Source of the DNA: Planctomycetota bacterium
GTDB lineage: Bacteria > Planctomycetota > Planctomycetia > Gemmatales > Gemmataceae
Assembly: GCA_029777335.1 (NCBI GenBank)
Contig: JAKOSN010000207.1
Span: forward strand, 1-35,909
DNA length: 35,909 nucleotides
Reading direction: 5' to 3'
Positions 17,501 through 35,909 of this stretch are shown here, piece after piece; within the stretch, counting starts at the first letter, position 1, and each line of letters opens with the position of its first letter. The position numbers were made by a program, and so were the translations under genes. A model generated the notes under the pieces. It ran no database searches, was not told the DNA's origin, and worked only from the letters and a program-made list of their open reading frames with translations.

Positions 17501-18198
17501 TCCTGGAGAAGGAGGGCTATCATGTGGTCACGGTGGGCACCGGGATGGACGGGGTGCGCCTGGCGCGCGAGTTAAAGCCGTTCGCCATCACCCTCGATGT
17601 GATGATGGCCGGGATGGACGGCTGGGAGGTGTTGACGACCCTGAAAGCCAACCCCGCCACCAGTGACATCCCGGTGATCATGGTGACGATCGTCGACGAC
17701 AAGAATCTCGGCTACGCGCTTGGGGCCACCGATTACATGACCAAGCCGATCGATCGCGAACGCCTGATCCGGCTGCTGTTGCGCTATCGTCAGCGCGATG
17801 CCAAACGCGAGGTCCTGGTGGTCGAGGACAGTCCGGAAACGCGGGAGGTGTTGCGGCGCACACTGGAAAAGGTGGGCTGGACCGTGATCGAGGCGGAAAA
17901 TGGCCAGGTGGCGCTGGAGAAATTGCGTGAATCTATCCCTGCGATTCTCCTGCTTGATCTGATGATGCCCGAGGTGGACGGCTTCGAGGTGGTTTTGCAA
18001 ATGCGGCAGAACCCCGCGTGGCGGCATGTGCCGGTCATTGTGTTGACCGCCAAGGAACTCACTGCGCACGATCGCGAAATGCTGAACGGCTCGGTGCTGC
18101 GCGTGCTGCAAAAGGGGCAGGTGTCGTTACAGGAGGTCCTGGAGGAACTACGCGACTTGATGCTGGAAGTCGCCCCGCCTTACGATACCCGATCGTGA
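14581..18198 (+). CDS. Hybrid sensor histidine kinase / response regulator: TM, about 430-aa extracytoplasmic sensor, TM, HAMP, PAS, HisKA, HATPase_c, REC, REC
   Basis: - H-box [19 protein letters not shown]
- N, G1 and G2 boxes: [27 protein letters not shown]
- PAS: [37 protein letters not shown]
- Two receiver domains: [12 protein letters not shown]...[13 protein letters not shown] and [12 protein letters not shown]...[14 protein letters not shown]
- AAGGGG SD 8 nt upstream of the ATG. Confidence 0.9.
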
Positions 18199-19508: not shown

Positions 19509-21629
19509 TCACTCCAGGGGAGCCACCTGAACGAGATTATCGAAGAACGTCGCCCCCCCGCCGAGGTCGGTAAGTCGACTGCTCGTGGTCATGTTGCAGT
19601 TCATGCCGTCGGCGGTGTAGCGGCTCCACCAGACGCCGAGGGTCGCCACCACCCCCGGCTGCACGGTCGGACCGACCACTGCCCGCGCCTGAAATCCGCC
19701 GCGTTCATTGAACACGCGCACCAGCTGACCGTGGTGAATCCCTCGTTGCAGAGCGTCGGCGGGATGTATCTCGACGATCGGCTCGCGCGCATCTTCACGC
19801 AACGAGGGAACGTTGACAAAGGTCGAGTTCAGAAACGACGGATGAGGCGGACTCACCATCTGCAGAGGATAGCGACGAGCCAGCTCGGGGTGCGTCTGCG
19901 GATCCTCGTGCGGGGGGACATAGGCGGGCAAGGGATCGAGTCCGCGCGCCTCCAGCGAGGGGCTGAATAACTCGCACTTGCCGGACGGCGTCGCAAAGTG
20001 GCCATGGGCGAAGGGCGTGTAGTCGAGCGGCAGATTCAGACGCAGCGGGCCTTCCTCCAGCAGACGCTCCCGCGTGATCCCCTCGAAAGCTTCCTGGTGC
20101 GGATAGCGTCCCGGCGCCTCAAGGGGGTCCAGGGCGAGGCGGATCAATTCCTCGTCGCTCACGTCGAACAATGCGCGTTCAAAACCCATGCGTTGGGCCA
20201 GCAGGCGGAACACCTCGGTATTGCATTTCGCCTCACCCAGCGGGGCGATCGCTGGTTGATTGATCTGCACATAGAGATGGCCATACGCGCCGTGAATGTC
20301 CCAGTGCTCCAGCTGCGTGGTCGCCGGCAGAACGATGTCGGCATACCTGGTTGTGTCGGTCGGGAATTGTTCGTGAACCACGGTGAACAGATCGGTGCGC
20401 GCCAGCCCTGCGCGAACGCGGTGCTGATTGGGACACACGGCCGCGGGGTTGGAGTTCCAGACATAAAGGGCACGCACAGGTGGACCGGCGAGTTCACCAT
20501 GGAGTGCCTCGCCCAGCTGAACCATGTTCACCGTGCGCGTTCCCGGCGGAACCAGATCCGGGCGCGTCAGGCGATCATCTCGCAGAAACGGGTTCTGGCC
20601 CGAGGTGCTCAGCAAGGCGCCGCCGCCCGGATAACGCCAGGCGCCGATGAGCGCGGGGAGGCAGGTGATGGTTCGCACCGCCATCCCCCCCCCGCCATGC
20701 CGTTGCAACCCATAGTTGAGGCGGATAAACGACGGCCCGCGGCGCTCCTCCCTCGAGGTGGCATAGAGCCGGGCGAGGTCCTCGATATCCTTGACCGGGA
20801 GAGTTGTGATCGCCGACACCTTCTCGGGGGAATAGTCGCGCTCCACCCGGTCGCGCAGCTCATCGCCTCCAAGACAAAAGCGATCCAGATAGTCCTGATC
20901 GTGCCATCCTTCACGCCAGATCACGTGCATCATCCCCAGGGCGAGGGCGGCATCGGTGCCGGGGCGGATGGGAAGCCACCAATCGCTGCGTGCGGCGGTG
21001 CGACTCCGGTGCGGATCGATGGTGATGATGCGTGCCCCTTCGCGGCGCGCCTTCACCATCAGAACCCACAGGTGGGAATTGGTGACGCTGGTATTCGAGC
21101 CCCAGTTGATAATGGTGCGCGCCTTGACCACCGTATCGGGATCGACAAAGGCGCGCGTTCCCAGGGTCACGAGACAGCCGGCGATTCCCGCAGTGGCACA
21201 GATGGTGCGGTCCAGCAACGAGGCACCCAGGCGATGGAAGAAGCGAAAGCCGAGGCTGCCGCCCTGAAGCTGGCCCATGGTGCCGGCATAGCTGTACGGC
21301 AGGATTGTCTGGGGGCCGTCGGGGGACTGGGCGAGCGCACCGAACGTGCGTGCAATCGTGTCGAGCGCCTCCTCCCAGGTGATCCGTTCAAAGCGCCCCT
21401 CGCCCTTGGCGCCAACGCGCTTCAGCGGCCATTGCAAACGCTCCGGGTGATAGACTCGTTCCAGGTAACGCGCCACTTTCTGGCAGAGGAATCCCCCGGT
21501 GAAGGAGTGGTCGGGATTGCCGCGCAGGTCCACGGCCCGACCCGCCTTGACGGTGACGACAAGGGAACAGGTATCGGGACAGTCGTGGGGGCAGACAGCG
21601 CGAACGAGGTGCGGGGCCTGAGTGATCAC
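19509..21629 (-). CDS. Molybdopterin (bis-MGD) oxidoreductase catalytic subunit with N-terminal 4Fe-4S domain (formate dehydrogenase / assimilatory nitrate reductase-like). Start revised to GTG 21629 (MITQAPHLV...). The track start 21650 would put the GGAGG SD inside the ORF.
   Basis: Cys cluster CPHDCPDTC...GGFLC near the N-terminus. Molybdopterin oxidoreductase signatures along the length. GAAAAGGAGGATCGATCG precedes the GTG at 21629 with 8-nt spacing. No in-frame TGA, so no Sec in this enzyme. Confidence 0.8.
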   Translation of the reverse strand: MITQAPHLVRAVCPHDCPDTCSLVVTVKAGRAVDLRGNPDHSFTGGFLCQKVARYLERVYHPERLQWPLKRVGAKGEGRFERITWEEALDTIARTFGALAQSPDGPQTILPYSYAGTMGQLQGGSLGFRFFHRLGASLLDRTICATAGIAGCLVTLGTRAFVDPDTVVKARTIINWGSNTSVTNSHLWVLMVKARREGARIITIDPHRSRTAARSDWWLPIRPGTDAALALGMMHVIWREGWHDQDYLDRFCLGGDELRDRVERDYSPEKVSAITTLPVKDIEDLARLYATSREERRGPSFIRLNYGLQRHGGGGMAVRTITCLPALIGAWRYPGGGALLSTSGQNPFLRDDRLTRPDLVPPGTRTVNMVQLGEALHGELAGPPVRALYVWNSNPAAVCPNQHRVRAGLARTDLFTVVHEQFPTDTTRYADIVLPATTQLEHWDIHGAYGHLYVQINQPAIAPLGEAKCNTEVFRLLAQRMGFERALFDVSDEELIRLALDPLEAPGRYPHQEAFEGITRERLLEEGPLRLNLPLDYTPFAHGHFATPSGKCELFSPSLEARGLDPLPAYVPPHEDPQTHPELARRYPLQMVSPPHPSFLNSTFVNVPSLREDAREPIVEIHPADALQRGIHHGQLVRVFNERGGFQARAVVGPTVQPGVVATLGVWWSRYTADGMNCNMTTSSRLTDLGGGATFFDNLVQVAPLE

Positions 21630-21831
21630 CGATCGATCCTCCTTTTCCACTGATTGTGGAAGGAGAAGAGGCGATTGTCAATCACTGCGGTGGCTTCCCC
21701 GCGGACCGGCCCTGGTTTCATCGCGGTGGCATCATAAAATGAGCGACGTGGACCGCCACACGGCCGGCCCGGCGCGCTCGCGTTGAGCTGTCGGCTGAAT
21801 GCTTCTCAAGATCCCGGAAAGCCGAGACCGT

Positions 21832-24465: not shown

Positions 24466-25278
24466 ATGGATGAGCGCCTGCAGCGAATCAATACGATGTG
24501 GAGCCAGGTGCTCAAGATCCCGCAGCAGGGGCTGGACGGAAGCGTCCATCAGAATCTGGACAGCATTGTCACCAATACCGATCTCTTACTGGAGGCGAAT
24601 CGCACCCCCGACCCGGTGCTCTCGCCCATGATGCAAATGGCCCAGCAGGCGCTGATGCAACGCTATCATGGTGCTGTTTATCGCTATTTGCTGGCGGCGG
24701 TGCGCGATCCGCATGTGGCGGAGGACCTTACCCAGGAGTTTGCCCTGCGCTTTATTCAGGGGCGGTTTCGCCATTACTCCCCCGAGCAGGGACGTTTCCG
24801 CGATTATCTCAAGAGCGCGCTCTTTCATCTGGTTGCAGACTTTCGCCGCAAGAGTTGTCGCGAACCCGATCTCATGGCGTCCGACTTCGAGCCGTCGGCG
24901 CGCGAAGAACCAACCTCGGAAGAAGACTCGCTCTTTCTGGACACCTGGCGCAAGGAACTGCTGGCGCGCGCCTGGGAGTCTCTCGCGCGCGTGGAGAGCG
25001 AAACCGGGCAACCGTATCACCTGGTGCTGCGCTACCGCTCGGAGCATCCCGAGCGCTCCTCGCAACAAATCGCCGCGGAACTCTCGCGGCAATTGAACCG
25101 ACCGCTCACCTCAACCAACATTCGCAAGTTGATCGAACGCGCCCGGGAGAAGTTTCGGCAATTCCTGCTGGAGGACCTTCGCCTGTCACTGGGCAATCGT
25201 GCCGAGACCGATCTGGAAGAGGAACTGCAAGCCCTGAACCTGTGGAAGTACTGTCGCGACGATCTGCGCTCCCATTGA
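24466..25278 (+). CDS. ECF-type RNA polymerase sigma factor (sigma-70 regions 2 and 4) with N-terminal extension
   Basis: - Region 2-like: YHGAVYRYLLAAVRDPHVAEDLTQEFALRFIQG
- Region 4-like HTH: YHLVLRYRSEHPERSSQQIAAELS
Start could be later (MWSQ at 24496). Confidence 0.7.
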   Translation: MDERLQRINTMWSQVLKIPQQGLDGSVHQNLDSIVTNTDLLLEANRTPDPVLSPMMQMAQQALMQRYHGAVYRYLLAAVRDPHVAEDLTQEFALRFIQGRFRHYSPEQGRFRDYLKSALFHLVADFRRKSCREPDLMASDFEPSAREEPTSEEDSLFLDTWRKELLARAWESLARVESETGQPYHLVLRYRSEHPERSSQQIAAELSRQLNRPLTSTNIRKLIERAREKFRQFLLEDLRLSLGNRAETDLEEELQALNLWKYCRDDLRSH

Positions 25279-25522: not shown

Positions 25523-26398
25523 ATGACTTTCGCCAATTTGCTTTTTCTGACCACGCTGGGGCTCCCGGCCGCGGACCACGAGGCGAGCAATCCCGTCTAT
25601 CGCCACCTGCGACAAACCGGCGTGGCGATCACCTCCACCCAGACGATCCCGCTTCCTCCCCCAAGCATGGCCGACGGGTTATCCGCCGAGGGGCAACAGA
25701 AGGTGATCAGGGAGGTCGCAGGGCGCGATTATGCAGTGGCCGAGTTGCTTCGAAAATCGCCGGTGTCCCCGCACATCCTGCGGCTGCGTGACATCACCCC
25801 GGCGGATCCCCAAACTCCTAGGCGCGGCGTCGATGTCTGGTTCATCGCTTATGGCGATCTGAAAACTCTCTCGAAGAAGGAGTTCCTGGAGCGGTTGCAG
25901 AACAGTAATCGCGAGGAGGCGAAGGGGGAACAAATCAAGAGCGAGGCGTTGAAAAAGCGTGGGATTGAAATCAAAAGCGAGGACGACAAACGCGAGGCGT
26001 ATGGCCACCTTGTGTTCAACTTCCTTGATCGGGTTCAGATCAGCACCACAGGGCACACGTTCTGGTCGGAGACCGACGATTCAATCCTGATTGCCAGCGA
26101 ACTCGATCCGCGCTTTGCTCGCGATTCCGACTATCCCAATCAGTGGCGCGCCATCAGCAAGGACCGGCAGGGGAAAAAGGAACTGGGCGAACCCCAACCC
26201 TACCAGGGATCGGGCTACTATCTCAAGATTACCCGCCTTGCCAGCCCGGAAGGCGCTCTCTTTGTGGAGGGGCATGTGATCTTTGCTGAACCAGTCAAGT
26301 GGTTCAACGGCGCCAATCTGCTCCGATCCAAACTTCCCCCGGTGGTGCAGAACCAGGTGCGCGCGTTCCGTCGTGAACTCGGCAAACGCGCGCCCTGA
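25523..26398 (+). CDS. Hypothetical protein downstream of the ECF sigma factor gene (291 aa). Function unknown.
   Basis: AGGGGA SD 7 nt upstream of the ATG. Hydrophobic N-terminus MTFANLLFLTTLGLPAA may be a signal peptide. Lys/Glu-rich central region. No family recognised. Confidence 0.6.
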   Translation: MTFANLLFLTTLGLPAADHEASNPVYRHLRQTGVAITSTQTIPLPPPSMADGLSAEGQQKVIREVAGRDYAVAELLRKSPVSPHILRLRDITPADPQTPRRGVDVWFIAYGDLKTLSKKEFLERLQNSNREEAKGEQIKSEALKKRGIEIKSEDDKREAYGHLVFNFLDRVQISTTGHTFWSETDDSILIASELDPRFARDSDYPNQWRAISKDRQGKKELGEPQPYQGSGYYLKITRLASPEGALFVEGHVIFAEPVKWFNGANLLRSKLPPVVQNQVRAFRRELGKRAP

Positions 26399-26405
26399 AG
26401 GCTCC

Positions 26406-27161
26406 TCAGACGAGATCCGGTCCGCGTCCCTGGGCATGAGCGATAATCGGGATCTCGTGAGTGGGTGTGCGCGGGGTACACAGCCGGGTATCCTCGATGA
26501 TGCGGCCATCGCGAATGCGCACCACTCGCTCGGCTCGCAGGGCGACCTCATCGCTATGGGTGACCACCACCAGGGTCATGCCACGATCGCGATGAAGCGC
26601 GGCGAAGAGATCCAGCACATCGTTGGCGGTCCGGGTATCGAGGTTCCCAGTCGGTTCATCGGCGAGCAGCAGCGGTGGATCGTTGGCCAGGGCGCGAGCG
26701 ATCGCCACCCGCTGACGTTCCCCGACCGACAGACGCGAAGGGAGATGCTGCAGACGGTGGGATAAGCCCACGGTTTGCAGTAATTCAAGCGCCTTCTGAG
26801 CTCGCTGCGCGGCGCGCAACGGTCCCTCGAACATGGGGATCTGCACATTCTCCAGCGCGGTCAAGGTGGGCAACAGGTGGAATGATTGGAAGACAAAGCC
26901 GATCCGCCGCGAGCGAAACTCGTCCAGGTTGCCGTAGGCGTTCAGGGGTTTGCCCTCGAAGCGGATTTCGCCCCGGTCGGGTTCGTCGAGCGCACCGAGG
27001 AGGTTGAGCAGGGTGGATTTGCCACTCCCGCTTGGACCCATGATGGCGACATAATCGCCCCGTGCGATCTCCAGCGAAAGATCGACCAGGGCAGCCACCT
27101 TGCCATCCGGGTAGACCTTGCAAACCCGGAGGGCGGCCAGCAACGGCTCGGATTCACTCAT
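26406..27161 (-). CDS. ABC transporter ATP-binding protein (LolD/MacB/DevA-like)
   Basis: Walker A GPSGSGKST. Signature LSVGERQRVAIARAL. Walker B LLLADEPTGNLD. H-loop VVVTHS. Start at ATG 27161 (MSESEPLL...) overlaps the upstream permease stop in the sequence ATGAGTGA, indicating coupling. Confidence 0.9.
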   Translation of the reverse strand: MSESEPLLAALRVCKVYPDGKVAALVDLSLEIARGDYVAIMGPSGSGKSTLLNLLGALDEPDRGEIRFEGKPLNAYGNLDEFRSRRIGFVFQSFHLLPTLTALENVQIPMFEGPLRAAQRAQKALELLQTVGLSHRLQHLPSRLSVGERQRVAIARALANDPPLLLADEPTGNLDTRTANDVLDLFAALHRDRGMTLVVVTHSDEVALRAERVVRIRDGRIIEDTRLCTPRTPTHEIPIIAHAQGRGPDLV

Positions 27162-28305
27162 GACGCAAAGCCTCCGTGGGCAACCAGTGCGCGGCGCGGT
27201 AGGCAGGGTAGGTGCCACCCACGAGGGCGACCACCAGAGCGGTCACAAATCCCTGCATCATGATCACCGGGGAAACATCCCCGCGGACAAACCCATTTAC
27301 CTCGGGAACAGTTGCCAGCCAGCGCGTCACCAGGACCGCCCCGAGGACGCCCACGACCCCCCCGGCGATGCTGAGTAACATCGATTCCCCCAGGATCATG
27401 CGGACGACCCGACCCTTGCGCCACCCCATGGCGCGCAGAATGCCGATCTCCTTGATCCGTTCGAGAACCGAGGTGATCATCGTATTTAACATGCTGATGG
27501 CGCCGATAAAGGCAGCGATCGCCGAGGTAATCCAGGCCATCCCATGGGCCAGTTGAATATAGAGGGTCCCGGACACGTACTGTTTCGATTCCTGAGCCAT
27601 GATCTTGTAGGGCCGGCCCTGCTCATCCTTGAGGGTCTCGATCTCCTTGCAGACCCGCTCGACCGTTCCCGCCCGATCCTCTGCTGGCTCCAGAACGACC
27701 GAGAATCCTGTGACGCGCCCCTTGCGATCCATCAGACGCTGCAGTTCGTCGAGCGCGATCACCACACCGCCATTTTCGTACACATTGAAGCTCCGAAAAA
27801 TCCCTACCACGCGAAACGGCTCCTGCTGCATCTCGATCGTATCGCCCACCTTCTTGTTGAGGGTGCTGGCCAGGGTGGTCCCGAGCAGGACCTCGTGCGG
27901 ATCCCCCTTCTGCAAGGAGCGGCCGTCCAGCAGAGTGAGATCGTCGAAGAGAGGGGTGTTGGGACGCCAACCATGGATTAGCGCACTGCTGACGCTGGTC
28001 CCGCGGGTAATATCAATCATCTCCAGCAACCCCGGCCAGGCGGTCTTCACGCCGGGAATGTGCTGCAACTGCTCGCAGATCTTCTCGTCCAGATCGCTGC
28101 GTAACTGATCGGCCTGTCCCGCAGCCACCACGACAATGTCGGTGCCGCGATGCTGGAAGCTCTCCACGAACGACGACTCGAAGCCGTAGGAGATACCGCG
28201 AAGCGTGACCATGGTGCCGACGGCGACCGCCACCCCCAGGATGGTCAGCAACGAGCGCGTCTTGCGCCGGGTCAGGTTTTTGATGAGAAAGGTAAGAAAA
28301 TACAC
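27154..28305 (-). CDS. ABC transporter permease, FtsX/MacB family (DevC/LolC-like): N-terminal TM, periplasmic domain, C-terminal FtsX 3-TM bundle
   Basis: Hydrophobic N-terminus MYFLTFLIKNLTRRKTRSLLTILGVAVAVGTMVTL. C-terminal FtsX-like region ...ISMLNTMITSVLERIKEIGILRAMGW.... GTG start with AGGAG SD 6 nt upstream. Starts 3 nt after the preceding hydrolase stop. Confidence 0.85.
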   Translation of the reverse strand: MYFLTFLIKNLTRRKTRSLLTILGVAVAVGTMVTLRGISYGFESSFVESFQHRGTDIVVVAAGQADQLRSDLDEKICEQLQHIPGVKTAWPGLLEMIDITRGTSVSSALIHGWRPNTPLFDDLTLLDGRSLQKGDPHEVLLGTTLASTLNKKVGDTIEMQQEPFRVVGIFRSFNVYENGGVVIALDELQRLMDRKGRVTGFSVVLEPAEDRAGTVERVCKEIETLKDEQGRPYKIMAQESKQYVSGTLYIQLAHGMAWITSAIAAFIGAISMLNTMITSVLERIKEIGILRAMGWRKGRVVRMILGESMLLSIAGGVVGVLGAVLVTRWLATVPEVNGFVRGDVSPVIMMQGFVTALVVALVGGTYPAYRAAHWLPTEALRHE

Positions 28306-28308
28306 GCT

Positions 28309-29184
28309 TCACTCCTGGGTGCTCAAAGCCGGGGTTGCTGCCAGGGTGGGCTCTTTCAGGGTCCCCAGATGCTTCTGAATCAAAGCGACAAAAGCCTCTG
28401 CGTTCTGCAGCGGGGCCAGGTGCTTGGCCCCTGGAACCACGTCCAGGGTGCAGTGGGGGAGATGCTCGGCCAACCAGTCGCGGGTGGCGGCAAAGGGCGT
28501 GTGTTCATCATACAGGGCCACGACCGGTTGGCGAATCGAGGCCAGGCGCTCAGCGGTCAAGCCGGCCACGGCAAAAACGTCGGCTCCACAGGTGGTGGTC
28601 GCCAAACGCGGCAGCTGGGACAACCAGCGGACCGAGGGGGCGCCCATTTCACGCCGAATCGCGCTCATTTGTTCCGCAGTTAACCCTGCCACCAACTGGA
28701 ACAGCGTGGTGAAATCGACCTGCTCTCCCAGTTCCACTCCCGCGACGGCAAAGGTTTGTTTCAGATCGAGCCAGACATTGGTTTCGCCGAGATTGGGCTC
28801 AATGGCGCCGAGTCCGGGGAAGTAGCTGTCCGAGAGAATCACGCCCGCGACGCGCTCTGGATAGAGCGACGCGGCATGCATCGCTACCACGCCGCCAAAA
28901 CTGTGACCGACCAGGTACGCGGGCCCCAACGCCAGGGCCTCGTGCAGCAGGCGAAAATCCCAGGCCATGTCGGCGGAGGTGTAACCACTGGGAGGGGCAT
29001 CGCTCAGGCCGTGGCCGCGCAGATCGTAGGCGGTCACCCGGTAGTCCCCCCCGAGAGTTTCCAGCAGATTAATAAACATCCACACCGCGAGGTTGCTGGT
29101 GACGGCATGGATCAAGACGACATCCGGCCCGTCTCCGGTTTGCTGATAAAAGAAGCTGTTGCCGTCGAGGTTCAGGTGTGGCAT
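28309..29184 (-). CDS. Alpha/beta hydrolase, candidate thioesterase/acyl-hydrolase of the PKS operon
   Basis: Nucleophile elbow VGHSFGG. DVVLIHAVTSN...YDLRGHG is a typical abhydrolase N-terminal region. Lies in the operon between the ACP and the ABC permease. Confidence 0.8.
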   Translation of the reverse strand: MPHLNLDGNSFFYQQTGDGPDVVLIHAVTSNLAVWMFINLLETLGGDYRVTAYDLRGHGLSDAPPSGYTSADMAWDFRLLHEALALGPAYLVGHSFGGVVAMHAASLYPERVAGVILSDSYFPGLGAIEPNLGETNVWLDLKQTFAVAGVELGEQVDFTTLFQLVAGLTAEQMSAIRREMGAPSVRWLSQLPRLATTTCGADVFAVAGLTAERLASIRQPVVALYDEHTPFAATRDWLAEHLPHCTLDVVPGAKHLAPLQNAEAFVALIQKHLGTLKEPTLAATPALSTQE

Positions 29185-29200
29185 GGGTGCTCTCGTGGTC

Positions 29201-29479
29201 TCAGCGCAGATGGGTCTGCAAAAACGCTGCCAGGTCGCCGACGGCGAGGTCCTGCACCCCGCGCTGGCTCATCTGGCTGACGAATTGATGAAAGGGCAAC
29301 TTCTGGCCGTACAGCGCTTCCAGTTTCTCGGCAAGGATGACAGCGTCGATCGAAACCATCCCCAGATCGCCAAAGAAAAGCGTCTCCGGGCCGATGGGAT
29401 CGGAATATTCGCGGCCATTGAAGTTCGCCAGCAACGTGGCGAGGTCGCGTTCAATCTGAAACCGGGTGCGCGTGCTCAT
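29201..29479 (-). CDS. Free-standing acyl carrier protein (92 aa)
   Basis: Start at ATG 29479 (MSTRTRFQIERD...) with AGGAGG 4 nt upstream. Phosphopantetheine-site-like motif FGDLGMVSIDAVILAEKLEALYG. ATG overlaps the TGA of the upstream PKS (ATGA). The track start at 29629 would add an implausible Pro/Arg-rich leader. Confidence 0.7.
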   Translation of the reverse strand: MSTRTRFQIERDLATLLANFNGREYSDPIGPETLFFGDLGMVSIDAVILAEKLEALYGQKLPFHQFVSQMSQRGVQDLAVGDLAAFLQTHLR

Positions 29480-32400
29480 GGGGCCTCCTGTTCGCAGAAG
29501 GTGATCGCCACCAGATAGCCGTTCTCGGCGAAGGTGTAGACACGCAGTGGGGCCCCGCCATGCTCCGGGAGGCGGGGCGCCAGGTTTGCGCTCGGGAGTA
29601 TGCGGACCAGGCCACTTTCCGGATCGCAACTCTCGCTGAATAACTCCGCGACGGCGGTTTGAAGCGCCGAGGCGACCGCTTCCAGTGCCAGGCGTGACCG
29701 GTCCTCGTCATGAGCGGGTCCTGTCAACCGTGTGGCGGCGATTCCCGGGCGCCCCGTCATGCAGGCCACCCCAAAGGACACCCCGTCCCGATGGGTGGTC
29801 GCAACCCGAGGGAAGGGCTCAGGCTCGCTCACCGCACGCCGTGCGCCGTGCCATTGCCCCGGACCGTCGGGGTAGCATTCGATGTCTGCCGGGAAGATGC
29901 GCTCGTTGTGGATCTGGGTCCACAGCAGCCGAGCGGCATCCTTGGCGGTGATCCGCTCGAAAAGCCAGCGGATTTGCTCCGCCTCGGTGCCCGAGAGACG
30001 CCGTTGTTCGCTCAGTTCGCGAGGAGTGAGGCTGACACACCCGGCCGCGCGCCGCATCCCCGCGCGTTGCAAATCGGCCGGCGGTTCCAGCCGCGCCACT
30101 GCCAGGGGGCCGGGGTGACTGCGCATCTGCTGGAGTTTGTCCTCGATCGCCGTCCAGCGCGTGCTGAGGAAGTATTGATCCTTGGGGCCGTGGAAGTTCA
30201 CACTGCCAAACGGGACGTAGAAGCGCCAGTATTTGAGGGAACTCATGCGCGCCCAGAGGCGCCCGTTGGGACCAATCACCTCGATGGTGTGCACATAATG
30301 CCGGGCCGACTCCTCGACGATGCGCCCTTGGACACGCAGTTGTGTGCCTTCGGGCAAGGGGCCGCCAAACATCTCCAGCCGGCCCATCTCAAAGGGGAGC
30401 AGAATGCGCCCCGCCTGGCTTTCCTGCTCCAGGTGCCAGCCACAGAGCGGATGCATGGCAATATCGAGCAGAACGGGATCGAAGAGAAAAGCGGGTTGAT
30501 CCGTCCAGCTAAAAAGCCCCCGGCGCGGAGGCACGACAATTTCGCCGATGGTGCCATCGCGCCCCACCACGCCAAGGGAGAGCACCCCGGTGAAGAGCCG
30601 CCCGTGGAAAAGGCTGTTATACAGCTGTTCCAGCGTGATGCGGCACGGATGCTGATCAGCGAGCGGGAACGGTGTGGGTTCCGGGGCAGGAGGCAAACGG
30701 TCGCCGAGCCGCACAAAGCCCAGGGCTGCCACTCCTGCCTTCTCGCTCAGATCGCGCACCTCCACCGTGAGCAAGGTGACTCCCGGTTCCTCGGGATTTG
30801 CCGGAGCGCTGCGCAGGGTAATCTCCACCTCGCCCACGATTTCTTCGTCGAAGGCCAACCAGCGGTGCAACTTGACCCGATCCAGACCAAGCACCACCTT
30901 CCCCGGGCAGAAGACCGTGGCTGCCTCGGCGATCATTTCGAGGGTGAAGGTCATCGGCATTACCGGCAGGCCGTGCTGGTGCGGATCGACCTTGCTCACC
31001 GTGCGGCCGCCCACCGTGTGCTCATCGGCAAAACGATCGCGGCTGAGATCCATGAGGCGACGCATCACCAGGCGTTCGCCCGGCACATGCTCGATCACCG
31101 TCCCCAGGAGAGGGAGGGGTTCTGGCGCTGGCTCAGCAGGGAGCGGTTCCGCGGGGAGCGAAGCCAGGGGTTCCTGGACGATCAGGTCCTCCGCCGGCGA
31201 CCTGGTCTGAGGACCTCGGGCAAGGTAGAGCTCCATCAACTCGCGTTGCAGATCGAGGAACTGCTCCATCACCTCGAAGTAGCTCGTCATCACCCCCGCT
31301 CGTGCCCCGGCTCCCCCCTGGAGGGTCGGCGGTAGCGACGGCACGATAGGGGAGGGCATCCACTCGATGCGGCGAGGATGCCGACGAACGTAGAGCGGAT
31401 CGAGACGAAGCGGCACCTGGTGCGCTGCCAGCTGACCCAGGACGTGCTGCAACTGGGTCAGTGGGGAACGACGTGGCACATTGAGCGGCAACGCGGCACA
31501 GGTGCGCCCACGCAGAATATCCTCGACAAACGACGAGAGATTGCCACGCGGGCCGGATTCGACAAAGAGACGCACCCCCTCCGCGTACAGATTCTCGATC
31601 AGCTGGGTGAATTCCACCGGTGCGGCCCAGTGCGACACGGTTAACTCGCGCATCGCCTCGGCATCGTGCGGAAAGAGCCTGGCGGTGGTGCAGGAGTAGA
31701 CCGGGATCCGCGGCGTGTGAAACTTCACCCCGGCGAACAACTCGCGCAGGGGAGCGAGCGACTCCGCAAAGAGAGGGGTGTGATAGGGGCGACGGAAGGG
31801 GAGCCGTTCGTGCATGATCCGTCGGGCTTGGAGATCCGCCTCGATCGCTGCCAGCGGGCCAGGTAACCCAACCACCACCGTCTGATGGGGGCAGTTGTCC
31901 ATGGCCAGGAAAACCGTCCCCGCGGGATGAGCGTTGAGCAGGGGAGCAAGATCTGCCTTGCCGGCTCCCACGGCCAGAAGGACAGCTTCGGTCCCCTGGC
32001 CTGCTGCCTCGGCGTGCTGCATCGCCTCCACGGCGCCGACCAGCCGGATAAAGGTTTCGTCGTCGATCTCCACGGCGTCGGCGGCCCACAGCGCCGCAAG
32101 TTCGCCCATGCTGTGCCCGGCGACCGCATCGGGAGAAAGACCGAATGCCCCAAGCAAGCGCCACAGAGCGTAATCGACCATGAGCACACTGCACATGGCA
32201 TTGCCCAGTTGGCGCAGCTCGTTCTCCGCCTGGGCGAATTCCTCTGCGGAAGCGTGGGGAGGCAACTGAAACACCCGACTGAGCGAGCCGCGCGGATGAT
32301 GGGCCCGCCGGGCGGCGTCATCACAACGAGCAAAGGCGTCGGCGACCTCGGGGAAGTGCGCACACAGGTCGCCCGCCATGTTGATATACTGTGCGCCTTC

Positions 32401-32811
32401 CCCCGGAAAGAGGAACGCGATCTTTCCCTGTGGATAAAGAGGCTCCTCAAAGTAGTAGATACCCAGGGAGTCGCGAAGCTGGGTACAGTCGGGCCTGTGC
32501 AGACGTTCTCGGCTGCGCGCCAGGCGTTTTTGGAGCTCCGCCACCGAGCCGGCGACGATCGCCAGGCGTTTCCCTGCCGTGGGGAGGTCGTGGTTGAGCG
32601 TCCACGCCAGGTCTTTCAGATCGACCGTTGGCTCACGCTGCAGAAAGGTTTCCAGCTGCTGCACCAGGGTGAGCAGAGCGGACCGATCTGGCGCGCAGAG
32701 AAGGAACAACTCGCTCTCCCAGGCCGGGCAGGCCGGCGCAGCAGAGACCACGACGTTACTGGGGAGAGTCGTGAAGCGCGGGTGAATCCCGTTGCTGGTT
32801 GTTGCAGGCAC
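29476..32811 (-). CDS. Type I PKS / PUFA-synthase-like protein: acyltransferase domain followed by dehydratase (hotdog) region. Probable start GTG 32811 after the AGAGGAGG SD. The ATG at 32847 overlapping the upstream stop is the alternative.
   Basis: AT motifs FLFPGEGAQY, GHSMGELAALWAA (GHSxG), NCPHQTVVVG, YHTPLF. DH-like segment RFADEHTVGGRTVSKVDPHQHGLPVMP...FHGRLF. Domain order resembles PfaB/PfaC-type secondary lipid synthases. Confidence 0.8.
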   Translation of the reverse strand: MPATTSNGIHPRFTTLPSNVVVSAAPACPAWESELFLLCAPDRSALLTLVQQLETFLQREPTVDLKDLAWTLNHDLPTAGKRLAIVAGSVAELQKRLARSRERLHRPDCTQLRDSLGIYYFEEPLYPQGKIAFLFPGEGAQYINMAGDLCAHFPEVADAFARCDDAARRAHHPRGSLSRVFQLPPHASAEEFAQAENELRQLGNAMCSVLMVDYALWRLLGAFGLSPDAVAGHSMGELAALWAADAVEIDDETFIRLVGAVEAMQHAEAAGQGTEAVLLAVGAGKADLAPLLNAHPAGTVFLAMDNCPHQTVVVGLPGPLAAIEADLQARRIMHERLPFRRPYHTPLFAESLAPLRELFAGVKFHTPRIPVYSCTTARLFPHDAEAMRELTVSHWAAPVEFTQLIENLYAEGVRLFVESGPRGNLSSFVEDILRGRTCAALPLNVPRRSPLTQLQHVLGQLAAHQVPLRLDPLYVRRHPRRIEWMPSPIVPSLPPTLQGGAGARAGVMTSYFEVMEQFLDLQRELMELYLARGPQTRSPAEDLIVQEPLASLPAEPLPAEPAPEPLPLLGTVIEHVPGERLVMRRLMDLSRDRFADEHTVGGRTVSKVDPHQHGLPVMPMTFTLEMIAEAATVFCPGKVVLGLDRVKLHRWLAFDEEIVGEVEITLRSAPANPEEPGVTLLTVEVRDLSEKAGVAALGFVRLGDRLPPAPEPTPFPLADQHPCRITLEQLYNSLFHGRLFTGVLSLGVVGRDGTIGEIVVPPRRGLFSWTDQPAFLFDPVLLDIAMHPLCGWHLEQESQAGRILLPFEMGRLEMFGGPLPEGTQLRVQGRIVEESARHYVHTIEVIGPNGRLWARMSSLKYWRFYVPFGSVNFHGPKDQYFLSTRWTAIEDKLQQMRSHPGPLAVARLEPPADLQRAGMRRAAGCVSLTPRELSEQRRLSGTEAEQIRWLFERITAKDAARLLWTQIHNERIFPADIECYPDGPGQWHGARRAVSEPEPFPRVATTHRDGVSFGVACMTGRPGIAATRLTGPAHDEDRSRLALEAVASALQTAVAELFSESCDPESGLVRILPSANLAPRLPEHGGAPLRVYTFAENGYLVAITFCEQEAP

Positions 32812-32843
32812 GGCTATTCCTCCTCTGCGTTGACAGGTACCCG

Positions 32844-35800
32844 TCACCGTCCGACCGCGAGCGCCTGGGGCGGCTGGGCGAGTTGCTCCGCTCCGCCGGC
32901 GATGATCACCTCGCTCTCGCCCTTGTGTCCGTACAGGAGTTCCTCAACCAGGAACACCGGTCCTTCCTCGGGGGTGATCAACTGCAGCCCGCGTTGCGTG
33001 AGATGTTTCTCCAGGTCGGCGACCATGCCAATGCGCGCCCACGGCCCCCAGGCGATCGAGACCACACGTCCCGGCCATTCGCGGTCGAGTTTCCAGGCGA
33101 GTTTGCTCAGCACTTCATTGGCCGCGGCATAATCGGACTGCCCCTTGTTGCCATAGCGGCTGGCGATCGAGGCGAAGAACACCAGGAATTTCAGGTGTTC
33201 TTTGGAGAGGTGCTCGCTGAGCCAGAAGGCGCTTTCACTCTTGGTGCCGAGGACCCGTTCAAACGATTCGGGCGTCTTGTCCTTCACCAGGCGATCCTCG
33301 ATGATGCCGGCTCCGTGAATCACCCCTTCGAGCCGACCGTGCCGTTTCTCGACCTCGCGGAGCAGGTGGGCAAATGCCTCGGTATCGCGCACATTGAGGG
33401 AGTGATACTCGACCCGTGCCCCGGTCGCGCGAATCCGCTCCAGGTTGCTGCGGATCTCCCGATCCTGGAGGAGGCGTTGATAGGCCGCCTCGACAGCGGA
33501 CGGTACGATGGGCCGGCCTTCCTGCTGCATCCGGGCCATGAGGATGCTCTTGATCGCTCCCGGCTGAGTGAGCGAGGCAGTTTCTGGATCTTCTGTTTCG
33601 ACCGGCAGCGGAGAGCGTCCCACCAGGATGAGCGTGGGCTTGAACCGTCGGGCGATCTCCAGCGCTACCACCGCCGTGACTCCTCGTGCTCCGCCGGTGA
33701 TCAGCACGGTGGAGTCGCGCGTGAGGAGCGGGGTGCCGTTGGACGTCGGAGTCAGCGGAGCCGCCACGGGCTCCCAGGTGACCCGGCGCGTGCCCAGATA
33801 GCCGATCTCCACAGGTCCCTGGCGATCCGCCATCTCGGCCAGCAATTGTTCCGCCAGCTGAGTCGGTGTGCGGGCTTCGAGATTGACATCGACCGCCCGC
33901 ACCAGCACCTCGGGCCATTCCTGCGCCAGGCACTTGGTGAAGCCCAGAATCCCGCCTTGCCCGGCAAAATACGATGCGGGGAGAGGATTCTCGCCAAAGC
34001 CGAAACTGCCTCCCAGTGCCGTCGCGGTCAGCAGGTAGGCATTCCCCTGCTGGGCGCTGGCACGCAGCTGGTCGCCAAGCCCCCGGGCCAGCAGATAGAG
34101 CGATTGCACCTCGCGCCGCAGCCGTTCGGTGGGCGTTTCCTCCGCTCGTGCCTGGGCCAGCGGCAGCAGATGGATCAGGCCAGCAATCGGTCCGACGTCC
34201 TTCTCCAGTTGAGCGAGAAGCGCGAGGACCGCTTGCGGAGATGCAAGATCGGTTTGATAGATATCTCCCTCGGTACTCCTGGGGCCATGGCGGAGGAGGA
34301 CCACTTTCTGGCCCAGGTCGGCCAGGCGATTGGCCATTTCCCGCGCGATGCCTCGTTGATCGTCGGTAAAGAGAATCGCCCCCGGCGCCAGCGAAAAGAG
34401 CGGTGAGGAAGGCATGAGCGCCTCGGCGAGGCGCACCAGCGCCCGTTGGACCTTCCCCTGGACGGGCGGAGTGGCTGTCACGGGGCGGGTTGGAGCCGGA
34501 GGAGTGGCTCGCTCTGCTTTCTTCTCCTCCTTGCAGACGATGCTGGTGAGATAATCGAGGATGCCCCGAATCGTCTTGATGCTCGTCAGCTTTTCCATCT
34601 CCAGCTGATTGGCAAGGTCGCTGTCGCTGTTGTCGGCACCCATCGCCTGGGCGAGTTCGCCAAGAATTTCGACGCGCTTGATCGAGTCGATCCCCAGGTC
34701 TGCTTCCAGGTCCAGATCGGCGCCGAGCATTTCCCGGGGATACCCCGTGCGGTTGCTCACCAGTTCATGAAGCCGCGTGCTCAGCCATTCGCGATCGATC
34801 GCCGGGGTGGCCGAGGGAGTCGCCGCTGGCGGGGGAGGCGGTGTTATCGGGGTGACCGATTCCACCGGCGCCGGCGACTGAGGAGCGACATGGGGCGTGT
34901 TGCCATTGATCGAGGTCGGTGCCGCCGGCGGTTCATTCATGCGTGCGACGATCGAAGCAGGAACGAAGCCGTTCTCGCTCGGCGCGGGCGGCGTTGATGG
35001 AGGGGCTGACACTGCAGGGACACTCGCTGTCCCCTGCAAAAAGCTGGTCATCACGCTCTTTTGTGTGTCCAGGAAACGAGCCATCAAATCCTGAAAACGA
35101 AGCATCACCTGGGCCGCCTCGTCGCTGGCCGGCGCGGCGGTGTGGGGATGAGGGAGCGTACCATTGCTCGCGGGGGTATGGGGGACCGGGTTCGCCATGG
35201 GTGTCGTGGGTCGTGGGGGTGTTGGGACAGTTCGTGAGCTGTGAGCCGCCGTCCCGTTGGAAGTACCGTTTTTCGCCGAAGGAGCAGTGCCGTTCACGAT
35301 TTTCTCGGGGGGCGCCTTGCCTGCCGGAGCTTTCTCTCCCGGCGCCGTGGTCGCAGGGGTCCGCGCGGGAGGCACTGCCTTCTCGCTGCGCGACTGGCCG
35401 AGCAGGAGCGGTTCGGGAGCGTTGTGCGGACGATTGCGCACACTGTTGATGATCCAGCTACTCGGGGTGAGGCGCGGTTGGCCGGTCTCCTGCGCCAGGT
35501 GGGCCAGGTTGAGGACAGGCAATCCTCGCCCTCGGAACACTCGATCCAGCTGAACAGGAACACCGTGGACGAGTAACTGTCCCAGCAGATGCACCAGCTG
35601 AACCAGTCCCGGGCGACCCTTGACATCGGAAGCCAGGGCCAGGTGGGGGCGGTCCTTGAGGATCTGCTGAACCAGGCCAGTGAGGACGGCCTGAGGCCCC
35701 ACCTCCAGAAAGATGCGTGCCCCGGCGTTGTACATCGCCTCGATCTCACTGGCGAAGTGCACGGGTGAGCCGAGATGATCCGCCATCGTTGCCGCGATGA

Positions 35801-35909
35801 TCGCCGGATCGTCGGGATGGGGAGCCGCCGTGGTATTGGAAAACACCGGCAAACGCGGGGCGTGGAACTTGGCAGCGGTGAGTGCCTCGGCCAGCGGAGC
35901 GCGAGCAGC
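32844..35909 (-). CDS. Type I PKS / PUFA-synthase (PfaA-like) protein, 5' partial. Frame stays open to the window edge. In-window domains: C-terminal part of an acyltransferase region, Pro/Ala/Thr-rich linker, ACP, ketoreductase.
   Basis: Seen in sequence:
- no stop between 35852 and 35909 in frame (...AARAPLAEALTAAKFHAPRLPVFSNTT...)
- ACP motif DLGIDSIKRVEILGEL
- KR NADP site VLITGGARGVTAVVALEIARR
- KR catalytic region GQSDYAAANEVL
- KR C-terminal region AWGPWARIGMV
- stop TGA at 32844-32846. Confidence 0.85.
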   Translation of the reverse strand, partial: AARAPLAEALTAAKFHAPRLPVFSNTTAAPHPDDPAIIAATMADHLGSPVHFASEIEAMYNAGARIFLEVGPQAVLTGLVQQILKDRPHLALASDVKGRPGLVQLVHLLGQLLVHGVPVQLDRVFRGRGLPVLNLAHLAQETGQPRLTPSSWIINSVRNRPHNAPEPLLLGQSRSEKAVPPARTPATTAPGEKAPAGKAPPEKIVNGTAPSAKNGTSNGTAAHSSRTVPTPPRPTTPMANPVPHTPASNGTLPHPHTAAPASDEAAQVMLRFQDLMARFLDTQKSVMTSFLQGTASVPAVSAPPSTPPAPSENGFVPASIVARMNEPPAAPTSINGNTPHVAPQSPAPVESVTPITPPPPPAATPSATPAIDREWLSTRLHELVSNRTGYPREMLGADLDLEADLGIDSIKRVEILGELAQAMGADNSDSDLANQLEMEKLTSIKTIRGILDYLTSIVCKEEKKAERATPPAPTRPVTATPPVQGKVQRALVRLAEALMPSSPLFSLAPGAILFTDDQRGIAREMANRLADLGQKVVLLRHGPRSTEGDIYQTDLASPQAVLALLAQLEKDVGPIAGLIHLLPLAQARAEETPTERLRREVQSLYLLARGLGDQLRASAQQGNAYLLTATALGGSFGFGENPLPASYFAGQGGILGFTKCLAQEWPEVLVRAVDVNLEARTPTQLAEQLLAEMADRQGPVEIGYLGTRRVTWEPVAAPLTPTSNGTPLLTRDSTVLITGGARGVTAVVALEIARRFKPTLILVGRSPLPVETEDPETASLTQPGAIKSILMARMQQEGRPIVPSAVEAAYQRLLQDREIRSNLERIRATGARVEYHSLNVRDTEAFAHLLREVEKRHGRLEGVIHGAGIIEDRLVKDKTPESFERVLGTKSESAFWLSEHLSKEHLKFLVFFASIASRYGNKGQSDYAAANEVLSKLAWKLDREWPGRVVSIAWGPWARIGMVADLEKHLTQRGLQLITPEEGPVFLVEELLYGHKGESEVIIAGGAEQLAQPPQALAVGR

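Follow-up and report, generated by a model that had tools for sequence, protein, structure and literature searches.

Contig JAKOSN010000207.1 of GenBank assembly GCA_029777335.1, from a planctomycete of the family Gemmataceae, was analysed over its entire length of 35,909 bp, and "the window" below means this whole contig. Near its right-hand end, six tightly packed genes of the minus strand (g1 to g6, Table 1) encode part of a polyketide synthase (PKS) resembling polyunsaturated fatty acid (PUFA) synthases, a second synthase protein, an acyl carrier protein (ACP), a hydrolase and the two parts of an ATP-binding cassette (ABC) transporter. The original prediction, made from the sequence alone, recognized these genes as a PUFA-synthase-like operon coupled to a DevCA-type exporter. 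It overlooked the convergent neighbour of g6, a gene for a secreted protein of START-like fold (g7), as well as how widely the cluster is conserved among Planctomycetota. We think there is somewhat better than an even chance that the block comprises the 3' two-thirds of an operon, conserved in planctomycetes, that makes and exports a long-chain lipid.

Table 1. Genes, domains and related features of the cluster. Coordinates are those of the window unless a related locus is named.
Feature	Coordinates	Strand	Description
g1	32844..35909	-	3' part (1021 codons) of PfaA-family megasynthase; contig end cuts the 5' side
g1 ACP	34611..34775	-	Pfam PP-binding, residues 379-433; phosphopantetheine serine in GIDSI, motif at residue 406
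g1 ketoreductase	33036..33710	-	Pfam KR, residues 734-958; GARGVTA nucleotide binding, YAAAN catalytic motif
g2	29476..32811	-	1111 amino acids; ketosynthase-acyltransferase linker relic, predicted non-malonyl acyltransferase, PKS-type dehydratase, phosphopantetheinyl transferase-like C-terminal domain
g2 acyltransferase	31486..32415	-	Aligned with E. coli FabD and g1-type acyltransferases of orthologues
g2 dehydratase	30229..31113	-	PKS_DH_N and PS-DH; double-hotdog; His in EHTVGG, Asp in LLDIAMH
g2 phosphopantetheinyl transferase-like domain	29479..30150	-	AcpS/Sfp superfamily, tandem halves; metal-binding motifs of second half degenerate here
g3	29201..29479	-	Stand-alone ACP, 92 amino acids
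g4	28309..29184	-	Cytoplasmic alpha/beta hydrolase
g5	27154..28305	-	Type VII ABC permease (MacB/LolC/FtsX architecture)
g6	26406..27161	-	ABC ATPase, 251 amino acids
g7	25523..26398	+	Secreted protein, 291 amino acids, START-like (helix-grip) fold; convergent on g6
Tailoring inserts	L031 12312..15050; L039 14264..16835; L070 14571..17069		Between g4 and g5 in related loci

All six minus-strand genes lie where they had been predicted, and the junctions read from the sequence are the expected ones: g2 and g3 overlap by ATGA, g5 and g6 overlap by ATGAGTGA, and g4 and g5 are 3 nt apart; between g3 and g4 there are 16 nt. For g1 and g2 a gap of 32 nt is most likely, with AGGAGG 8 nt ahead of the GTG at 32811. 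The longest open reading frame (ORF) for g2 would give a GTGA overlap instead. An exact-protein look-up with this longer reading, of 1123 amino acids (aa), came back empty; the 1111-aa start is the version on record, and it is also what was obtained when genes were called independently on a second assembly. The stop codons of g6 and g7 are separated by 7 nt on opposite strands. The reading frame of g1 is open up to the last base, 35909, in agreement with the prediction that its ketosynthase (KS) and 5' end lie beyond the window. A Logan assembly of the same sample (L001 in the set of compared loci) extends the locus by only about 200 nt and so does not bring back the KS end. Within the g1-g6 block, sites resembling promoters or terminators are no commoner than in shuffled sequence, so that co-transcription rests on gene spacing and conserved order.

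The portion of g1 in the window encodes, in this order, the C-terminal end of an acyltransferase (AT; Pfam Acyl_transf_1), a linker rich in proline and alanine, one ACP (PP-binding, 30.8 bits), a structural pseudo-ketoreductase and a ketoreductase (KR, E 4e-38). Its score against the NCBIfam model TIGR02813 (omega_3_PfaA subfamily), for which the curated cut-off is a whole-protein score of 1010.1 bits, amounts to 369 bits, as befits a truncated copy; full-length orthologues in two related loci, L024 and L025, reach 1094 and 1112 bits and pass it. Together with the Pfam domains, these scores support the reading of g1 as a fragment of a PfaA-like protein. Orthologous g1 proteins of related loci measure about 2,400-2,600 aa. 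That of Zavarzinella consists of a nitronate monooxygenase (NMO)-like part (residues 1-330), an NMO/FabK-like enoyl reductase (ER), KS, AT, ACP and KR, and the N-terminal, ER and KS parts were found upstream in 50-60 related loci. The catalytic triad of the orthologous KS is intact (DAAC[GA]SS, HGTGT, KSMIGHSK), and the g1-type AT of the orthologues is, by comparison with E. coli FabD, a canonical malonyl transferase (GQGSQ, Gln63, GHSYGE, Arg117, AFHS). One GIDSI site for ACP is conserved in these proteins, matching the single PP-binding domain of g1 in the window.

Since KS, AT, ACP, KR, dehydratase (DH, supplied by g2) and ER form a complete set in which each occurs once, the make-up is that of an iterative reducing synthase and not of a modular assembly line; we infer that the synthase works iteratively. 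The logic of a secondary lipid synthase, proposed at the outset, is in this way supported by orthologous g1 proteins with one KS, malonyl-AT, ACP and KR and a fused ER. Of the upstream partners envisaged together with it, ER and KS are present in the orthologues, and a paired KS and chain length factor (KS-CLF) is absent. Neither a modular PKS or nonribosomal peptide synthetase upstream nor housekeeping Lol genes were seen in the orthologous loci. Divergently upstream of the synthase gene, 34 loci in all carry a gene for a peptidase of family S49 (SppA-like; 463..1566, minus strand, in L024), which sits elsewhere in L056 and L059. This peptidase was left out as a component of the system: the window ends before its position, and the linkage may be plain synteny.

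The product of g2 contains, as predicted, an AT (Acyl_transf_1, E 4e-23) and a DH (PKS_DH_N, PS-DH), preceded by a KS-AT linker; what had escaped notice is a fused domain resembling phosphopantetheinyl transferases (PPTases) and the loss of one pair of residues from the AT. When the window protein was aligned with 14 homologues, its AT was seen to retain the Ser-His dyad (GHSMG, YHT), with GEGAQ in place of GQGSQ and PYHT in place of AFHS. The equivalent of Gln63 is changed to M, I or F and Arg117 is absent, both in the window and in 14/14 homologues, while g1-type ATs keep the two residues. PfaB, shown by a structural and biochemical study to be a terminal transferase of long acyl chains, is without the same Gln/Arg pair (PMC12895367). 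Loss of this malonyl-binding pair with retention of the dyad is the mark of PfaB-like function adopted from that study, and by it the g2 AT is predicted to be a PfaB-like acyltransferase of long-chain or non-malonyl groups, in keeping with the original assignment; deprived of the pair, it would act on non-carboxylated acyl groups. The protein does not belong to the PfaB family as modelled by TIGR02816 (34.6 bits, cut-off 144.3). Its motif is GHSMG and not GYSxG as in PfaB, and of the pseudo-KS only the linker relic is left. The relic is explained by longer homologues of about 1,520-1,650 aa, found in relatives from Nitrospiria, Pseudonocardiaceae and Solirubrobacteraceae and in one Planctomycetota locus, L081 (L073, L075, L078, L080, L081), because a KS is detected inside those of L073, L075 and L078. 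In Thermoanaerobaculales (L079) the g2 homologue is a 1,123-aa ORF with a KS just upstream. These distant relatives follow the order KS-AT-DH-PPT, with no CLF and no FabA-type DH. Judged by these architectures, the KS of g2 is lost in the planctomycete lineage.

The C-terminal 250 aa or so of g2 give no Pfam match by themselves in the window copy. A profile built from the C-termini of g2 proteins matches B. subtilis AcpS (1F80, E 8e-11) with its first half and Streptomyces AcpS and the PPT domain of fungal fatty acid synthase (FAS) with its second. The Pfam model ACPS alone matches 10/31 g2 homologues, the window copy not being among them; for some relatives in the database the annotation given is transacylase/PPTase fusion. 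Copies of the Pirellulales type have the PPTase motifs GIDLEKIE and FWCAKEAVAKAL intact. In the window the first is changed to GIAATRLT and the second, FWCAKEAVAKAL, to RLALEAVASAL, so that the magnesium-binding motifs GxDxE and WxxKE(A/S)xxK are not found in the second half of the domain; other copies of the Gemmataceae type are degenerate in a like manner or have the motifs deleted. From its sequence, the domain in the window appears homologous to AcpS/Sfp PPTases and is probably inactive, in which case the ACPs would depend on a PPTase encoded elsewhere.

The remaining four genes of the block are assigned by Pfam as predicted. The stand-alone ACP encoded by g3 carries its serine in GMVSID (PP-binding, 23.5 bits, cut-off 20.8), and the hydrolase g4 (Abhydrolase_1, E 5e-26), with the nucleophile motif GHSFG, bears a weak similarity to type II thioesterases (Thioesterase, E 2e-7). 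The permease g5 scores above the cut-offs of both MacB_PCD (84.8 bits) and FtsX (70.7 bits); its hydropathy profile gives four transmembrane (TM) segments, at residues 17-38, 252-281, 300-334 and 343-366, and a periplasmic domain some 210 aa in size. In the ATPase g6 (ABC_tran, E 1e-36), Walker A (GPSGSGKS), the signature (LSVGE), Walker B (LLLADEP) and the H-loop (THS) are all intact. This is the architecture that defines type VII (MacB/FtsX-fold) ABC systems. Equivalog models of the known members, that is, family models for proteins of conserved function, all remain below their cut-offs: g5 scores 16.5 bits for DevC (TIGR01185, cut-off 290.35) and 79.1 for LolC/E (TIGR02212, 362.45), g6 182 bits for DevA (TIGR02982, 295.8) and 233.1 for LolD (TIGR02211, 307.75). 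On these scores g5/g6 is best described as a putative generic type VII ABC system, equivalog neither of DevCA nor of LolCDE, and the label "DevCA-type" has to be given up. The prediction that the window encodes no membrane-fusion component stands, as no gene of HlyD/DevB type or of TolC type was found among the window proteins.

The 291-aa protein encoded by g7 begins with a short, hydrophobic, signal-peptide-like sequence without a lipobox. No Pfam model, START or related, matches it at E up to 1, and a profile search of the PDB returned nothing below E 1.6. Its START fold was recognized by two methods; the model, predicted with the use of database homologues, is confident and shows a helix-grip fold of START size, and the structures closest to it bind sterols, ceramide, carotenoids or phosphatidylcholine. 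Beyond the window and L001, homologues of g7 adjoin the cluster in 21 related loci, placed convergently after g6 in 10, co-directionally after g6 in 3 and before g1 in 8; among loci having both flanks they are linked in 19/39. Every one of E. coli's four type VII ABC systems uses a periplasmic partner (EnvC, LolA, TolC or TesA), and tesA adjoins ybbAP (PMC12646458). By analogy, a secreted protein of lipid-binding fold beside g5/g6 fits this pattern and would be a candidate partner. On the same strand, 245 nt upstream of g7, lies a gene (24466..25278) for a 270-aa protein with sigma-70 region 2 only (ECF-like), which is not conserved in related loci.

A scan for g2 relatives, with one genome per species, found 294. 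Nearly all of the best 80 belong to Planctomycetota (Gemmataceae, Isosphaeraceae, Pirellulaceae, Zavarzinella formosa, Gemmata algarum), at 32-54% identity and, for full-length matches, at most 47%; the few others come from Nitrospiria, Pseudonocardiaceae, Solirubrobacteraceae and Thermoanaerobaculales. In tblastn with the window proteins, the order g1 to g6 is repeated in most related loci, those of Gemmataceae, Isosphaeraceae, Pirellulaceae and further Planctomycetota among them. Counting only loci with enough sequence to judge, g3 follows g2 in 65/72, g4 is present in 60/68, g5 in 51/63 and g6 in 49/58, which supports the predicted coupling of the ABC genes to the PKS. In seven loci (L031, L039, L070, L066, L067, L077, L081) a short-chain dehydrogenase/reductase (SDR) gene and two methyltransferase genes stand between g4 and g5, the ABC genes still being last. 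The inserted S-adenosylmethionine-dependent methyltransferases bear Trm112-like zinc-ribbon N-termini, and these inserts suggest lineage-specific tailoring of the product. The overlap of g5 and g6, the conserved position of the ABC genes and their place at the end even after tailoring inserts together argue for a functional link between transporter and synthase. Distant relatives outside the phylum are without adjacent g5/g6, whereas the planctomycete locus L081 keeps them, so the coupling is a planctomycete trait.

As for the product, the lipid chemistry of cultured relatives offers a candidate. Telmatocola sphagniphila and Zavarzinella formosa contain C26-C32 (omega-1)-hydroxy fatty acids, both saturated and mono-unsaturated, that are only residue-bound and in Zavarzinella make up about 41% of residue fatty acids, and Gemmata obscuriglobus is without this (omega-1)-hydroxy series and has residue-bound omega-OH-C24:0 instead (PMC3327967). 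C26-C32 (omega-1)-hydroxy acids are also reported for Frigoriglobus tundricola (PMC7534041) and for Fimbriiglobus ruber and Limnoglobus roseus (PMC7397252). Orthologues of g2 are present in Zavarzinella, Frigoriglobus and Fimbriiglobus. The 120 best matches to a Gemmata algarum query have identities of 55% or more, with Gemmata sp. G18, JC673, Frigoriglobus, Fimbriiglobus, Zavarzinella and Urbifossiella among them; they contain no orthologue from G. obscuriglobus, and none of them lies on the 9-Mb chromosomes of that species that carry a g7 homologue. Lipid reports and presence of the cluster agree in 4/4 cultured species.

Based on these observations, we propose the following scheme. A single iterative, fully reducing PfaA-family synthase would build a long acyl chain on one ACP, with ER, KS, malonyl-AT, ACP and KR coming from g1 and DH from g2. 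The AT of g2 would either load the starter or, like PfaB, off-load the finished chain, probably to g3, and the cytoplasmic hydrolase g4 would release or transfer it. Working without a membrane-fusion partner, g5/g6 might then pull the lipid from the inner membrane and pass it to the secreted g7 for delivery to the envelope, in analogy to LolCDE-LolA and YbbAP-TesA. The most likely product would be those C26-C32 (omega-1)-hydroxy fatty acids that several planctomycetes contain solely bound to the part of the cell that resists extraction. Their (omega-1)-hydroxyl could be the one that KR forms in the first cycle on an acetate starter, provided that this product were left undehydrated and all later cycles were fully reduced. 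A lipid that is bound to the residue has to be moved out of the cytoplasm, and here the ABC system and the carrier would have their task. Operon, mechanism and product taken together, we incline to this scheme a little more than we doubt it. Its boldest element, that a type VII machine without a membrane-fusion protein hands a very-long-chain (omega-1)-hydroxy lipid made by the synthase to a START-fold carrier, across the enlarged periplasm, for covalent attachment to the envelope, is put forward as a tentative idea that may well prove wrong.

Several points weigh against this scheme. The KS, the ER and the 5' end of g1 are taken from orthologues at 40-55% identity. The START likeness of g7 holds at the level of fold only (TM-scores about 0.45-0.57, 4-13% identity), and its linkage is not universal, covering roughly half of assessable loci; in G. 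obscuriglobus (CP042911; L082, 9043..10867) the homologue GobsT_57480 has no PKS within 10 kb, and g7 may thus serve other lipids. (A 311-aa gene without Pfam matches directly precedes GobsT_57480.) The agreement between lipids and cluster spans four related species, its single negative is an absence from a hit list and not the outcome of a genome scan, and it leaves out Telmatocola and Limnoglobus, both of which have the lipids. Pirellulaceae and marine lineages have the cluster too, and we found no report of (omega-1)-hydroxy lipids for them; for every family member the product is a putative one. A mid-chain double bond, such as that of C28:1 omega-8, is unaccounted for by the scheme. To our knowledge, type VII ABC systems do not flip substrates across the membrane, which leaves the route of a cytoplasmic product to the outer leaflet unexplained.

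Other readings of the locus differ in what they make of the transporter and of the product. The cluster might make a small-molecule polyketide, with the MacB-type ABC system as efflux or self-resistance pump and g7 unrelated. In genome-mining papers, planctomycete clusters of this kind are indeed tallied as type I PKS or hglE-KS, some loci contain tailoring SDR and methyltransferase genes, and pumps of the MacB family are exporters of antibiotics and peptides (PMC5985334). However, one KS module together with a complete reducing set, membership in the PfaA family, the PfaB-like AT of g2, the repeated linkage of a protein of lipid-transfer fold and the want of membrane-fusion or TolC genes in the window all speak against it, and the cluster is a near-core trait across families, whereas most antibiotic clusters are patchy; we regard this reading as improbable. 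Slightly less credible to us is that g5/g6 constitute a housekeeping lipoprotein-release system (LolCDE/LolDF-like) which merely lies downstream of an unrelated lipid synthase. The best NCBIfam names are indeed LolD for g6 and LolC/E for g5, and Lol systems likewise have no membrane-fusion protein, but both scores stay under the equivalog cut-offs given above, g5 is tied to g6 by an overlap and to g4 by a 3-nt gap, the adjacency is kept across several families and even with three tailoring genes inserted, and the periplasmic protein linked to them is of START and not of LolA fold.

Two further readings would change the lipid. The cyanobacterial one, a glycosylated long-chain diol or keto-ol exported in DevBCA manner, draws on the fact that both systems pair a PKS with an ABC exporter of the FtsX family. 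The C26 aglycones of heterocyst glycolipids carry a C-25 hydroxyl, and an (omega-1)-hydroxylated very-long-chain product as proposed here would share this position logic. Set against it are the DevC and DevA scores, far under their cut-offs, the missing DevB, and the want of a glycosyltransferase or thioester reductase both among g1-g7 and among the g4-g5 tailoring genes sampled in three loci (other flanking genes of related loci were sampled for such enzymes in L024 only); moreover, the published analysis of planctomycete lipids speaks of fatty acids freed from cell residue and not of glycolipids (PMC3327967). We think it unlikely, and the kinship with heterocyst glycolipid (Hgl) synthesis drawn in the original prediction falls with the DevCA label, while its PfaA/PfaB-like logic and its coupling to export hold. 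Least probable of all, and in our opinion very unlikely, is a PUFA or olefin-precursor synthase feeding the C31:9 hydrocarbon common to planctomycetes. It could appeal to the place of g1 in the PfaA family, to the occurrence of C31:9 in all Gemmataceae examined and to the proposal that Pfa-like clusters provide olefin precursors in G. obscuriglobus (PMC3098273), yet the cluster has no tandem ACPs, KS-CLF or FabA-type DH pair and matches none of the 20 architectures of Shulse and Allen. The olefin was rejected as product, given that G. obscuriglobus makes C31:9 and shows no g2 orthologue; only a different Pfa type is listed for that species (Shulse and Allen 2011).

The rest of the window contains a 1205-aa hybrid sensor kinase with HAMP, PAS, HisKA, HATPase and two receiver domains (14581..18198, plus strand) and a 713-aa molybdopterin oxidoreductase (19509..21650, minus strand), ordinary neighbours showing no conservation with the cluster. 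An 835-aa ORF (4742..7249, minus strand) matches the shoulder domain of the major vault protein (PF11978, 89.6 bits) and the vault repeat (PF17795, 36.5 bits), and thus represents, on a bacterial contig, a gene resembling those of vault proteins.

Public genomes already contain this sequence family, and the system is to be counted among the secondary lipid synthases related to Pfa. Our search of the literature on hglE-KS, planctomycete PKS, secondary lipid synthases and the biosynthesis of hydroxy fatty acids turned up no study that characterizes the cluster, which is met there solely as "type I PKS" or "hglE-KS" counts in genome descriptions, and no gene assignment for the C26-C32 (omega-1)-hydroxy fatty acids. 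The fusion of AT, DH and PPTase, the embedded type VII ABC system that does without a membrane-fusion protein and the partner of START fold appear to be undescribed so far. A PKS in a planctomycete would by itself not surprise a specialist; its link to a signature envelope lipid and the arrangement with a carrier are worth an experiment. The (omega-1)-hydroxy acids are characteristic extraction-resistant lipids of wetland and soil planctomycetes, and the cluster, conserved throughout the phylum, is a concrete and falsifiable candidate for their source, with G. obscuriglobus as a natural negative control. A START-fold carrier combined with a type VII extractor would suggest a route for lipid over the unusually large planctomycete periplasm. 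If the proposal is true, the genes for biosynthesis and trafficking of this signature lipid would be at hand, a START-type protein would enter bacterial periplasmic lipid transport, and the list of periplasmic partners of type VII ABC transporters would grow longer. The enzymology of PKS and FAS would gain a fused, partly degenerate PPTase domain and a PfaB-like AT that has shed its KS.

Among known systems, the Pfa PUFA synthases come closest on the biosynthetic side. Orthologues of g1 pass the PfaA model, the second AT is without the Gln/Arg pair like PfaB, and the iterative mode proposed here, the proposed lipid product and a dedicated PPTase homologue are shared; the ER of the cluster belongs to the NMO family (PF03060) and is FabK-like. 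The cluster differs in having one ACP in its synthase instead of the 3-9 tandem ACPs of Pfa systems, no KS-CLF, and a PKS-type double-hotdog DH in place of FabA-type DH pairs. Its ER is fused to the N-terminus of the PfaA homologue, its PPTase domain (degenerate in the window) to the AT-DH protein, and it adds a stand-alone ACP, a hydrolase, an ABC system and a START-like protein. Among types A-T of Shulse and Allen (2011) its architecture has no counterpart. The heterocyst glycolipid synthase of cyanobacteria with DevBCA-HgdD likewise couples a Pfa-related reducing PKS to an FtsX-family ABC exporter, and it makes an envelope lipid of very long chain that bears an oxygen function at (omega-1). 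The planctomycete cluster has neither a DevB nor a TolC partner, its transporter fails the DevC and DevA equivalog tests, and g1-g7 include neither a glycosyltransferase nor a reductase gene; what they have instead is a START-fold periplasmic protein.

On the transport side, g5/g6 share with the type VII systems LolCDE-LolA, YbbAP-TesA, MacAB-TolC and FtsEX-EnvC a permease of four TM segments with a large periplasmic domain and a separate ATPase, and also, as proposed here, the activity of drawing a hydrophobic molecule out of the inner membrane. Like Lol and YbbAP they have no membrane-fusion protein, and as with ybbAP and tesA a candidate partner gene lies next door. They are set apart by passing no equivalog model and by being embedded in a biosynthetic operon; of the partners EnvC, LolA, TolC and TesA, none is described as having a START/helix-grip fold (PMC12646458), unlike g7. 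With the START/SRPBCC domains themselves (STARD4/5, CERT, StAR, PC-TP), g7 has in common a helix-grip fold of full START size but neither detectable sequence similarity nor a Pfam START match, and it differs from them in being a bacterial protein, equipped with a signal peptide and presumably periplasmic.

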